A DNA stretch of 64,000 nt from an uncultured Actinomycetota bacterium (GCA_963743915.1 CAVURN010000001.1:64001-128000); one strand, 5' to 3'. Positions 35,139 to 37,999 are shown, counted from the first letter of the stretch. Translations and numbers: made by a program. The notes: a model not told the origin generated them from the sequence alone.

Positions 35139-36118
35139 GCAGCGAGACCTGGGCACATCTCAGCAACGCGCTGGTCTACAGCACGATCGTCGTGCTCTTC
35201 CTGGCCGTGGTCGCCTTCGCCCTCGACCTGGCGTTCGGGTCCGGACGCCGTCGAGCGCTGCAGGCGCAGCAGCGTCGGGTGGCGCTGCAACGACAGGCCG
35301 CCAGTGGGGGAGTGGCCACCGTGACGGCGCCCCCGAGCCAGGGGCAGGTCGACGAGCGTTACGCGCGGGTGGGTGTGTCGCTCACCACGCTGGCCGCTCT
35401 CCTGGCGGTCGCGGCGGTGCTCACACGGGGGCTCGCCGCCCAGCGGCCGCCCTGGGGCAACATGTACGAGTTCACCGTCACCGGCGTGGCGGTCCTGCTG
35501 GTCATCTGGGTGGGCATGCTGCGCCGTCGCCCGGAGTGGCGTGACCTCGGCATCCTCGTCACCCTCTTCACGCTGCTGCTGCTCGGCGTCGCAGTGCTCG
35601 TGCTCTACACCGAGTCGGCCGAGCTGGTGCCTGCACTCAAGTCGTACTGGCTGTGGATCCACGTGTCGGCGGCCATCATCAGCAGCGCCGTCTTCACGGT
35701 GGGTTCGCTCGCCTCCGTGGCCTACCTCGTGGTGGAGCGCTACGAGCGCCGCGCGGCGTCCGGCAGCACCGGCGGCCTGCTCGACTCACTGGGCGCGCGG
35801 CTGCCTGAGTCGGCGCGGCTGGACCGGGTGGCCTACCAGACGATCGCCTTCGCCTTCCCGCTCTGGTTCTTCGCGGTGGTCGCCGGTGCCATCTGGGCCG
35901 AGGACGCGTGGGGTCGCTACTGGGGCTGGGACCCGAAGGAGACCTGGTCCTTCGTCACGTTGGTGATCTACGCGGCCTACCTGCACGCACGCGCGACGGC
36001 CGGCTGGCGTGGGCGTCCGGCGGCGATCATCGCGATCGTCGGCCTCGCCGCATTCCTCTTCAGCTACTTCGGGGTGAACATCTTCTTCGTGGGCCTGCAC
36101 TCGTACGGCGGCGTCTAG
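35135..36118 (+). CDS. ccsB: Cytochrome c synthase ResC/CcsA-type (WWD domain)
   Basis: PWGNMYEF, WLWIHV, GAIWAEDAWGRYWGWDPKETW, GLHSY. Confidence 0.94.
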   Translation: MSSETWAHLSNALVYSTIVVLFLAVVAFALDLAFGSGRRRALQAQQRRVALQRQAASGGVATVTAPPSQGQVDERYARVGVSLTTLAALLAVAAVLTRGLAAQRPPWGNMYEFTVTGVAVLLVIWVGMLRRRPEWRDLGILVTLFTLLLLGVAVLVLYTESAELVPALKSYWLWIHVSAAIISSAVFTVGSLASVAYLVVERYERRAASGSTGGLLDSLGARLPESARLDRVAYQTIAFAFPLWFFAVVAGAIWAEDAWGRYWGWDPKETWSFVTLVIYAAYLHARATAGWRGRPAAIIAIVGLAAFLFSYFGVNIFFVGLHSYGGV

Positions 36119-36136
36119 TTCCGCCGGGTGTGGGTC

Positions 36137-36296
36137 GGGAGGGTCTTCCGAAACAGACGAAATCCTTCATCGAAGGATTGCGTGCGGTTCTCGGAACTCA
36201 GCGGCGGCAGAACCGCAAGGGATCCTCCCTTGGAGCACTGTCTGCGGCCCAGCAGCGGCCGAGCCATGAACCTCCGGGAACGCTCCAGCGACAGTG
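36137..36296. other. Multi-stem structured intergenic element (REP-like or ncRNA)
   Basis: GGGAGG/CCTCCC encloses GTCT/AGAC, AATCCTTC/GAAGGATT and TGCGGTTCT/AGAACCGCA stems; followed by CACTGTC/GACAGTG. Confidence 0.4.
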
Positions 36297-36320
36297 GCGT
36301 GCGGCTCCCCTGCTTGTGCG

Positions 36321-36566
36321 TCAGGACGCCGGAGGCTCCTGCTCTCGTTCCGGTTCGTCGCGTTCCCGCCGCTCTCGCTGCTGCTGCTCCCACAGCTGGG
36401 CGTCGAGGTCGCGCAAGAAGGTCGGGTCGTCGTCCGGGGCGATGGGCTTGCGGGGCCGGACGCCACCACCGCCGCCTCCACCGCCGCCACCGCGACGCTG
36501 CACCAGGCGGATGACCAGGTAGATGAGGACGGCGAGCACGAGAAGCACAGGGAGGAACCGAAGCAA
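36321..36566 (-). CDS. Small membrane protein (Rv0531-like, APDDDPxFL motif)
   Basis: GGAGG RBS and TTG start, one TM helix, Gly10 linker, PIAPDDDPTFLRDL. Confidence 0.75.
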   Translation of the reverse strand: MLRFLPVLLVLAVLIYLVIRLVQRRGGGGGGGGGGVRPRKPIAPDDDPTFLRDLDAQLWEQQQRERRERDEPEREQEPPAS

Positions 36567-36716
36567 GGCGTCACCTCCGTCTGCCGCGGGGGAGCCGAAC
36601 TGCGTCCCCGGTTTCTAGGCTAACCACCCGGCGCGGGTGCGGCAGCCCGGGTGTCCGCCCCGGAGATGCTGGCACCAGGCGGGCACGGAGTCCGCGCGAC
36701 GCCGCCGGACAGCGCA

Positions 36717-36759
36717 GCACCCCCGGACACCGTGCGGAAGGCGACGGTGGCGGGGGTGC
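36717..36759 (-). terminator. GC-rich hairpin, probable terminator of the sORF/sRNA transcript
   Basis: GCACCCCCG..CACCGT / ACGGTG..CGGGGGTGC. Confidence 0.5.
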
Positions 36760-36765
36760 CGGGGT

Positions 36766-36827
36766 TCTCAGGGAGGGGACCCCGAGAGGGCTCTCCGACG
36801 GCTGGATGAGGGGACGCCGCCGGAGAG
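36766..36827 (-). ncRNA. Candidate 3'-UTR sRNA with two hairpins whose loops both carry UCCCCU
   Basis: 12-bp stem with loop GUCCCCUCAUCCA and 8-bp stem with loop UCCCCU; each stem has a G.U pair only on the minus strand. Confidence 0.5.
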
Positions 36828-36843
36828 AAGCCGTAGGGTCAGG

Positions 36844-36978
36844 TCAGTGCGAGCGCCCCTTCAGGACCGAGCGAACGCGCTTGAGGGTGGCGGGGTTCGC
36901 GTGGCGAACCCGCAGCCGTTCCGCTTCAAGCTCGAGCACGCGGACGTGGGCGCGAGCAACCTCGAGCGAGGGAACCAT
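36844..36978 (-). CDS. Unannotated 44-aa small basic helical protein
   Basis: MVPSLEVARAHVRVLELEAERLRVRHANPATLKRVRSVLKGRSH; GGAG RBS; upstream TTGGAC-N18-TAGTAT promoter. Confidence 0.6.
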   Translation of the reverse strand: MVPSLEVARAHVRVLELEAERLRVRHANPATLKRVRSVLKGRSH

Positions 36979-37038
36979 GATTCTCAACTCCAGTGTCTTT
37001 CTCTTCGATTCGTGGCCTGGTTGGCCCCGATGGCTTCA

Positions 37039-37068
37039 ATACTAAGGCATGAATCGGACTTGGTCCAA
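37039..37068 (-). promoter_or_regulatory. Putative promoter of the small ORF
   Basis: Minus-strand TTGGAC (37068-37063), 18-nt spacer, TAGTAT (37044-37039); a GGAC-TTG-GTCC palindrome overlaps the -35. Confidence 0.4.
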
Positions 37069-37088
37069 TGATTACGAGCCTCTAGGGG

Positions 37089-37646
37089 ATGAACACCTTG
37101 CAAACGGAGAATGTTCCCGGGTCCGCCCGGGACGCCACCACGACCGGTGGGCTGCCGGTGATCGGGCGCGGCTCCCGTCGCCGGGACGTCCTGGACGCTG
37201 TCGACCGCACGATCATCACCGCGCTCCGGGCCAACGCACGGATCCCCTACGCCGACCTGGCCCGGCTGGTGGGCCTGTCCGGCCCGAGCGTGGCCGACCG
37301 GGTCAAGCGGCTCGAGCAGACCGGGGTGATCACCGGGTACCACGCCGCGGTCGCCCCCGCGGCCCTCGGTCTCGGGGCCGTGGCCATCGTGGGCATCGAG
37401 CAGTCCGACGACGGGGACCAGGATGAGATCGCCGAGTGCCTGAGCGAGCTGAGCGAGGTCGAGGACTGCTGGTTCGTGGCCGGTGACGAGTCGTTCATCC
37501 TCAAGGTACGGGTCAGTGACATCGACGCGCTGGAGAAGTCTCTGGGGCGGCTCCGCAAGATCCCGGGTGTGTCGCGGACGCACACCACCGTGGTGCTCTC
37601 GACCCGGTTCGAAGGTCGTGCGGCCCTGCCCCCCGAGGGCGAATGA
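37089..37646 (+). CDS. Lrp/AsnC family transcriptional regulator (start uncertain)
   Basis: LDAVDRTII..NARIPYADLARLVGLSGPSVADRVKRLEQTGVITGY HTH plus RAM domain. Confidence 0.9.
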   Translation: MNTLQTENVPGSARDATTTGGLPVIGRGSRRRDVLDAVDRTIITALRANARIPYADLARLVGLSGPSVADRVKRLEQTGVITGYHAAVAPAALGLGAVAIVGIEQSDDGDQDEIAECLSELSEVEDCWFVAGDESFILKVRVSDIDALEKSLGRLRKIPGVSRTHTTVVLSTRFEGRAALPPEGE

Positions 37647-37999
37647 CGCTGCAGGACAATGACGGGGTGCCCGACAACCCTCCGCCCGTCCCCACCGTGG
37701 CCGGCCAGCCGTGGTGGATGCGTCACCCGACGCTCTCCTACTCGATCGCCCGGCTGGCACTGTTCCTCGTGCCCTTCCTGATCCTGGTGATCTTCCTCGA
37801 CCCGATGCTCGCGCTCGTCATCGCCTTCGTCCTCTCGGCGGTCGCCAGCATCTTCGTGCTGTCACGCATGCGCGACGCGATGTCGGTGTCGATCGCCTCG
37901 CGGGCCGAGCGTGCCCAGCAGAAGATGGCCGAACGGGCGGCGTCCGAGGACGCGTGGGACGACGCGCAACGCCGGGACGAGGACGCGTCAGACCACTGA
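37643..37999 (+). CDS. DUF4229-like membrane protein
   Basis: YSIARLALF, two TM helices, acidic ED tail; typical position next to menA. Confidence 0.7.
   Translation: MTLQDNDGVPDNPPPVPTVAGQPWWMRHPTLSYSIARLALFLVPFLILVIFLDPMLALVIAFVLSAVASIFVLSRMRDAMSVSIASRAERAQQKMAERAASEDAWDDAQRRDEDASDH

Follow-up and report, generated by a model that had tools for sequence, protein, structure and literature searches.

6C RNA is built of two hairpins whose loops each contain about six or more cytosines. These C-rich loops are described as pairing with G-rich ribosome-binding sites in a chaperone-free manner, and unpaired C-rich stretches are reported to be common in the small RNAs (sRNAs) of high-GC Gram-positive bacteria (PMC6486639). 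The CcsR RNAs of Rhodobacter sphaeroides are described as originating from the 3'UTR of a gene for a small arginine-rich protein and as exposing anti-Shine-Dalgarno (anti-SD) loops; the protein encoded upstream of them, CcaF1, is reported to bind RNA (PMC8034643). In Staphylococcus aureus, a UCCCCUG motif in the icaR 3'UTR is described as pairing with the Shine-Dalgarno region of its own mRNA (PMC3868564). Among the publications listed on small-protein or 3'UTR C-rich RNA units in Actinobacteria, none describes, by title or abstract, the cassette considered here.

The cassette lies in a 64,000-nucleotide stretch of DNA from an uncultured Actinomycetota bacterium (the window). On the minus strand, a 44-codon ORF (36978-36844) is followed by two C-loop hairpins (36827-36791 and 36787-36766) and a strong third hairpin (36761-36715). 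Comparison with relatives indicates that this is an unannotated gene of uncultured soil and sediment actinobacteria, in which a new small protein and a new structured RNA motif are joined. A first description, made from the bases alone (the sequence-only reading), had listed promoter-like boxes, a GGAG ribosome-binding site, the ORF, the stems and a repeated loop sequence, all of which are present on the minus strand where it had placed them.

Taken by itself the window makes a weak case. The minus strand from 36690 to 36860 folds better than 200 of 200 shuffled sequences (z -3.47); the plus strand of the same interval also folds well (z -2.89), so the fold of a single sequence does not discriminate between strands. 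The 8-mer GTCCCCTC, located on the minus strand at 36815-36808 and 36780-36773, has three copies in the 64-kb window against a shuffle mean of 5.75 and is thus not in excess, and a scan of 36300-37400 for consensus promoters and terminators returned zero of each. The evidence therefore rests on relatives: across 37080-36715, all 13 same-genus genomes share 73-78% identity with the window, and this conservation ends at the foot of hairpin 3.

The ORF, P0001, extends from an ATG at 36978 to a TGA at 36846-36844 (36844..36978, minus strand) and is predicted to encode a basic two-helix protein with 8 Arg and 2 Lys in its 44 residues. AlphaFold2 places the helices at residues 3-27 and 29-42 (mean pLDDT 80.8); the model has no Foldseek match in the PDB, and the ESM Atlas gave matches all below 0.9, to unnamed clusters only. 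Across 36 ORFs of 44 codons, pairwise differences at codon positions 1:2:3 amount to 5128:2892:10220, and synonymous to non-synonymous codon differences are 7154:6835 in frame as against 2054:12207 and 673:12836 in the other frames; by this pattern of substitution the ORF is a real coding gene. A peptide profile detects it in every one of 20 genomes from the order. With a wider profile (A6) it is detected in 42 genomes of a 401-genome class sample, including 9 of 22 from a second family and several from others. At 11 farther loci inspected, from two families beside that of the window, the gene for an Lrp/AsnC-type regulator lies divergently next to the ORF in all 11, and a membrane protein gene or CcsA is kept in most; since the Lrp neighbour is retained, these are orthologues rather than chance matches. 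The small-protein gene that the sequence-only reading had proposed is thus borne out by third-position variation, by its occurrence throughout the order and by its conserved place next to Lrp/AsnC.

Protein databases hold few traces of this family. A HMMER profile search of 1.84 billion representative proteins returned 12 matches, ten of them 40-65 residues long, and a word-indexed protein search returned 17 proteins, all metagenomic and either unnamed or 'hypothetical'. P0001 matches no Pfam (E up to 1) or NCBIfam family, and six divergent relatives gave no Pfam match for the small protein at E up to 0.1. The core motif DLEFARAHGRVLELEADRL also appears in a multi-pass membrane ORF of 505 aa, near its C-terminal third, on two unrelated metagenome contigs (L078, 352-1869, and L079), probably by coincidence; the peptide motif in this ORF and in two proteins of ~700 aa was likewise judged coincidental and set aside.

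Downstream of the stop codon, an unpaired linker (36828..36843, minus strand, as for all parts of the 3'UTR) leads to hairpin 1; it holds a conserved motif, ACUACGAC in relatives, and a candidate RNase E-type site, GG/CUU. Hairpin 1 (36791..36827) starts 16 nt past the stop and has 12 pairs, with a G.U pair at 36820/36798 and a 13-nt loop, GUCCCCUCAUCCA, at 36815-36803. Hairpin 2 (36766..36787) has 8 pairs, a G.U pair at 36783/36770 and the loop UCCCCU at 36779-36774; its arms and loop are near-invariant in relatives, as CUCGGGG-CCCU-CCUCGAGA. Hairpin 3 (36715..36761) is a terminator-like two-tier stem with the apical loop CUUCC, and the tail after it reads UGCGCU in the window, which has no U-tract, and UGGCAAUUC in most relatives. 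The distance from stop codon to hairpin 1 ranges across relatives from 16 to ~130 nt; in three of those from the window's genus (L013, L014 and L015, from G003, G011 and G012) an extra 66-110 nt carries a hairpin of its own, GGTGAGC...GCTCACC.

The structure was assessed on 32 distinct 3'UTR sequences from genomes and metagenome contigs, using a hand-drawn structure of 39 pairs. It was supplied by hand because RNAalifold, applied to the MAFFT alignment, recovered hairpins 2 and 3 and missed hairpin 1 owing to indels in the stems. On the MAFFT alignment of the 32 sequences (A2), 87.8% of cells pair, as against 42-50% when the structure is slid, and 18 of 39 pairs have changed on both sides where shuffles gave a mean of 8.9 (0 of 500 as high). 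A model-fitted alignment (A5), which is biased towards the structure, raises these values to 91.2% of cells and 26 of 39 pairs. In hairpin 1, double changes affect 7 of 14 pairs on A2 and 11 of 14 on A5, and in the outer stem of hairpin 3 pairing reaches 99%, with double changes at 7 of 11 pairs. Hairpin 2 has 92.5-94.7% of its cells paired, a G.U at one pair in 28 of 33 rows, and a single pair changed on both sides on A2. In these alignments, then, hairpins 1 and 3 covary and hairpin 2 is near-invariant in both arms. By its pairing and double changes the three-hairpin 3'UTR is a selected structure; the two C-loop stems and third hairpin noticed in the window are thereby seen to be conserved and covarying in relatives, on A2 and A5 alike.

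The loop letters are conserved as well. Of 33 distinct rows, 30 contain the core CCCCUCA in the loop of hairpin 1, 29 have CCCU in that of hairpin 2, and 24 carry CUCC in the apical loop of hairpin 3. Loop letters that stay fixed next to covarying stems in hairpins 1 and 3 suggest that sequence, and not shape alone, is recognised. The sequence-only reading had also argued for the minus strand from positions that are G.U on that strand and A.C on the other; the alignment as a whole has 72 G.U cells against 22 A.C cells, a bias in favour of the minus strand, on which the ORF also lies.

Comparison with 6C RNA shows a likeness and a clear separation. The cassette shares with it the class of organisms and two hairpins with C-rich loops; the cassette loops are shorter, with runs of 4 C (5 in a few relatives) in CCCCUCA and CCCU, and its RNA is the 3'UTR of an ORF, unlike the 6C gene. 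At the gathering score, Rfam models found no 6C match or other relevant family in the window, and when all 4227 Rfam models were run on 36550-37150 at E up to 10, the only two matches were unrelated, on the plus strand and below their gathering scores. The genome has its canonical 6C RNA elsewhere (G000:C3:20178-20252, 52 bits against a cut-off of 47; locus L027, 1501-1575, minus strand), with two hairpins and six-C loops. A whole-genome scan with RF01066 at E up to 10 returned 4 places, the cassette not among them, and a covariance model of the cassette, R1, built from the A2 alignment, has no match on this 6C locus. In the order, 6C occurs at other loci in 16 of 20 genomes (9 above the cut-off). 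Identification of the cassette as a 6C RNA was rejected on these grounds: no match to the RF01066 model, too few loop cytosines and the presence of a separate 6C locus.

The layout resembles that described for CcaF1-CcsR1-4, in which a gene for a small arginine-rich protein is followed by hairpins with C-rich anti-SD-like loops and a terminator end (PMC8034643); it differs in phylum, and the cassette forms one two-hairpin unit as against four sRNAs. In hairpin 2, the sequence from the loop through the 3' arm is CCCCUCCCU in the window and CCCCUCCUC in the majority of relatives; it is similar to the CcsR sequence CCUCCUCCC and not identical to it, and the same is true of the hairpin 1 loop CCCCUCA. 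P0001 contains no DUF1127 (Pfam, E up to 1); with this and with no Rfam model match, membership of the cuckoo/CcsR group was rejected. Both 6C and cuckoo/CcsR had been named in advance as families to be checked; no Rfam family is matched, and novelty is not removed. By analogy and on present evidence, the cassette appears to work like 6C or CcsR and to be a member of neither.

The gene order around the cassette comprises genes for an MFS transporter, DUF4229 and Lrp/AsnC, pointing leftwards, the small ORF and an 81-aa membrane protein, pointing rightwards, and CcsA, pointing leftwards. Of 24 loci compared by tblastn, all have CcsA, and each of the other three genes (small ORF, Lrp, membrane protein) was detected in 23; one miss is a weak peptide, one a contig end and one an undetected gene. 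The Lrp/AsnC-type regulator (37089..37646, plus strand; Pfam AsnC_trans_reg 9.4e-18, HTH_AsnC-type 2.5e-16) is divergent from the small ORF in 23 of these 24 loci, the 24th contig ending earlier, as well as in the 11 more distant ones; the divergent arrangement proposed for the window is hence found at every locus examined in which the contig reaches the regulator. The regulator probably starts at TTG 37098 rather than at ATG 37089, since the position of the ATG reads GTT in most same-genus relatives and AACACCTTG with an AGGGG(G) box 8 nt upstream is conserved.

The gene downstream (36321..36566, minus strand) encodes an 81-aa single-pass membrane protein and has a -10-like box of its own, TAGCCT, at 36622-36617. 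The surrounding sequence GGTTAGCCT at 36617-36625, conserved as GGTTACCCT in relatives some 45-60 nt before the gene, looks like its own -10 box. The 81-aa protein contains a single membrane helix at the N terminus, ten consecutive Gly and the motif PIAPDDDPTFLRDL, which recurs as VIAPDDDPEFLSQL in the PLDc_N-type membrane protein encoded at the corresponding place in another family. That other-family counterpart (PLDc_N, 5.1e-10) lies ~70 nt after the small ORF, and the hairpin module is absent there. Because the second family holds the small ORF and membrane gene without hairpins, the module seems to have been inserted between two older neighbours, the membrane gene having gained a -10-like box (GGTTAsCCT) of its own. 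The occurrence of the small ORF in other families without the module also means that the module is not needed for the protein.

The RNA module is single-copy in the genome and is found only in the family of the window. With R1, 32 loci reach 70-136 bits; they belong to the genus of the window, to a second genus and to related metagenome contigs. Two other loci reach 53 and 42 bits, and another two only about 30 bits. In a class sample of 151 genomes, scanned with stricter filters, 4 genomes match, all from the window's genus; locus-level searches place the module also in the second genus and weakly in a third. Wherever found, it has the same genomic context.

Transcription of the cassette was sought in public data. 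The stretch is contained in 20 public runs, of which 6 are RNA libraries, and contigs of 4 RNA runs from 4 studies were aligned to 36100-37800. Each study provided one strandless contig at least 99% identical to the window: X15 (36710-37059, the whole 350-nt contig), X16 (36769-37059), X18 (36832-37069) and X20 (36768-37022). Their joint extent within 36100-37800 is only 36710-37069, and in that interval no contig of at least 99% identity falls on the Lrp gene or the membrane gene, so that the contig-free flanks act as a silent control against DNA carry-over. Short fragments at 36455-36494 and 37639-37752 (90-95% identity, with loose ends) were taken as sequence of other organisms. Where the sequence-only reading had called for RNA data, the cassette is now recovered as RNA contigs in four metatranscriptome studies. 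That nothing else in this 1.7-kb stretch was recovered as RNA contigs suggests a transcript much more abundant than those of the neighbours; the small-protein gene is probably highly expressed, although assembled contigs carry no level. One transcript of ~350 nt from the minus strand is very probable. Every contig includes ORF sequence and none of the four consists of the hairpins only, these being assembled contigs which carry no strand, depth or processing information.

The contig ends fall at structured positions or next to the candidate cleavage site. X15 ends at 36710, 5 nt past the stem of hairpin 3, and a 3' end at this hairpin fits a terminator. The contigs X16 and X20, which come from different studies, stop within the 3' arm of hairpin 2 (36769 and 36768), and X18 ends at 36832 in the linker, next to GG/CUU. 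Mycobacterial RNase E is described as preferring RN/CNU (PMC10641625); the linker GG/CUU fits this preference, which gives a weak hint of an RNase E-type site. The cassette would in this respect share a structured terminator end and a candidate RN/CNU linker site with 3'UTR-derived sRNAs that RNase E releases.

At the 5' side, a promoter-like element read by eye, P2 (37039..37068, minus strand), consists of TTGGAC at 37068-37063, an 18-nt spacer and TAGTAT at 37044-37039. In a regex count over 41 loci, TTGGAC is present in 30 and the 18-nt spacer in 32; three loci (L034, L035 and L073) were mis-picked in this count and 4 had no match. The -10 box varies as TA[GTC][TAG]AT, at inner positions only, with T1, A2 and T6 fixed, and the sequence of the spacer is free and unconserved in the locus alignment. 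CCTTAG[TA]AT also occurs in another family (L114 and L115). Judged across loci, the TTGGAC and TAGTAT boxes evolve like a sigma-70-type promoter, and beside this stands a covarying leader hairpin just downstream of the start that P2 predicts at about 37032 (hairpin 37011..37029, minus strand; 7 pairs, one mismatch in the window). In an ungapped alignment of 39 loci (A7), 74.7% of the leader hairpin cells pair as against 24-57% when slid, and 22 cells have changed on both sides compared with 7.6 in shuffles (0 of 500 as high), with double changes in 5 of 7 pairs. The ribosome-binding site GGAG (36988..36991, minus strand) lies 9 nt before the ATG at 36978, and GGAGTTGAGAATC-ATG is near-invariant in the alignments of relatives.

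P2 does not appear to be the sole start. The RNA contigs extend to 37059 in two studies and to 37069 in one, 15-25 nt upstream of the -10 box at 37044-37039, so three of the four reach past it. The promoter of the sequence-only reading accordingly holds as a pair of boxes present in the window and conserved across loci, but its role as the only start is contradicted by these contigs; the overhang may reflect either a second upstream start or a few longer transcripts which stretched the contigs. An upstream candidate on the minus strand, inside the 5' end of the Lrp gene, combines TTGCAA at 37103-37098 with GAGGCT at 37082-37077 (TnGGCT in relatives). It would suit the contig end at 37069; its -10 box is poor, lacking the usual A in most relatives.

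The 6C/CcsR layout, together with loop letters which are kept while the stems of hairpins 1 and 3 drift, favours a base-pairing role. It is tentatively proposed that the 3'UTR, as part of a small-protein mRNA, may act as a regulator that base-pairs with G-rich ribosome-binding sites in the manner of 6C and CcsR. A ~350-nt transcript would encode the basic helical protein of 44 residues and end in the lineage-specific three-hairpin 3'UTR, in which the loops of the first two hairpins and the apex of the third display the anti-SD-like motifs CCCCUCA, CCCU-CCUC and CUCC. These loops would pair with G-rich ribosome-binding regions of other mRNAs, acting either from the full-length mRNA or from a 3' fragment putatively cut in the linker before hairpin 1, and translation of the targets would be repressed or their stability altered, as with the C-rich loops of 6C and the CCUCCUCCC loops of CcsR. 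Hairpin 3 would stop transcription and protect the 3' end, and the divergent Lrp/AsnC regulator probably controls the cassette promoter.

A genome-wide count of GAGGGGA gave 410 sites, 53 of them before a possible start, where comparison motifs (not matched statistically) gave 17-88, and no regulon emerged. The G-run in the ribosome-binding site of the Lrp gene is present in the window's genus and absent in the genera of L053 and L058, which keep the C-loops; with no co-variation across genera, this site was rejected as the loop target. Further findings count against the base-pairing proposal: the near-invariant arms of hairpin 2 are not explained by loop pairing alone, the C runs of the loops are only 4-5 long, other families have the small ORF but lack the hairpins, and among the four RNA contigs there is no hairpin-only species.

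The near-invariance of hairpin 2 suits a different reading, considered unlikely, in which the hairpins form an RNA-protein platform: chiefly through hairpin 2, they would bind the 44-residue product of their own mRNA, in an autoregulation or maturation like that of CcaF1-CcsR, or else an RNase or a different RNA-binding protein. Hairpin 2 is conserved in its loop and in each arm of its stem, with one double-changed pair on the MAFFT alignment, and a protein of two predicted helices with ten basic residues in 44 has its precedent in CcaF1, the arginine-rich RNA-binding protein reported to be encoded upstream of the CcsR RNAs (PMC8034643). Since the protein occurs in other families without the module, its primary role would be independent of the hairpin RNA; nor does it resemble DUF1127 or any RNA-binding family.

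It is likewise doubtful that the hairpins form a purely cis-acting 3' end, which would terminate and shield a very abundant mRNA, the C-loops being a by-product of GC-rich composition or of terminator style. The contig end 5 nt past hairpin 3 and the two in the 3' arm of hairpin 2 agree with such a role, as does the conserved -10-like box of the downstream gene, and the hypothesis that C-rich stem-loops are alternative terminators is mentioned by Mai et al. (PMC6486639). Stabilisers need no fixed loop letters, yet of 33 rows these are kept in 30, 29 and 24; this reading would also leave unexplained why the linker is conserved and hairpin 2 invariant, and relatives in another family do without the module.

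It is conceivable, though quite improbable, that the cassette is a self-sufficient riboregulatory module with an origin separate from that of the alphaproteobacterial CcaF1-CcsR system. The arginine-rich protein would here bind its own 3'UTR and mature it into an sRNA with three anti-SD-like loops, and this sRNA would titrate G-rich ribosome-binding sites, possibly with that of Lrp/AsnC among them in a feedback loop, beside the canonical 6C RNA. A very unlikely possibility is that the 3'UTR loops pair in cis with the GGAG of the mRNA that carries them and so limit its translation. CUCC or CCUC is present in the loops and GGAGTTGAGAATC-ATG hardly varies, and the UCCCCUG of icaR offers a precedent, a UCCCC motif in a bacterial 3'UTR which is able to meet a Shine-Dalgarno sequence (PMC3868564). 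There the pairing is with the RNA's own 5'UTR, whereas 5'-3' complementarity in the cassette gave no sign in a crude test: duplex energies between 5' region and 3'UTR at 32 loci have a mean z of +0.15 against mononucleotide shuffles (full-length duplexes), and by eye no complementarity to the ribosome-binding site exceeds 4 bp. An attenuator, in which alternative pairing of G-runs and C-runs in hairpins 2 and 3 (CGGGG with CCCCG) would gate read-through into the membrane protein gene, is highly improbable, for although the likely ancestral order was small ORF, ~70 nt and membrane gene with no terminator, no RNA contig bridges hairpin 3 into that gene, the gap of 16 to ~130 nt between stop and hairpin 1 leaves translation coupling unconserved, and the gene has its own -10-like box.

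The locus adds a new small-protein family of 39-45 residues, skipped by annotation pipelines, which occurs in several actinomycete families beside Lrp/AsnC and cytochrome c biogenesis genes. Joined to it is a structured RNA motif absent from Rfam, whose loops fit the C-rich-loop target recognition known from 6C. If the 3'UTR acts in trans, as the base-pairing proposal supposes, the cell would have two C-loop riboregulators that evolved independently, and the cassette would be an actinobacterial counterpart of the CcaF1-CcsR arrangement. The cassette bears on how frequently small-protein genes and regulatory RNAs evolve as one unit.
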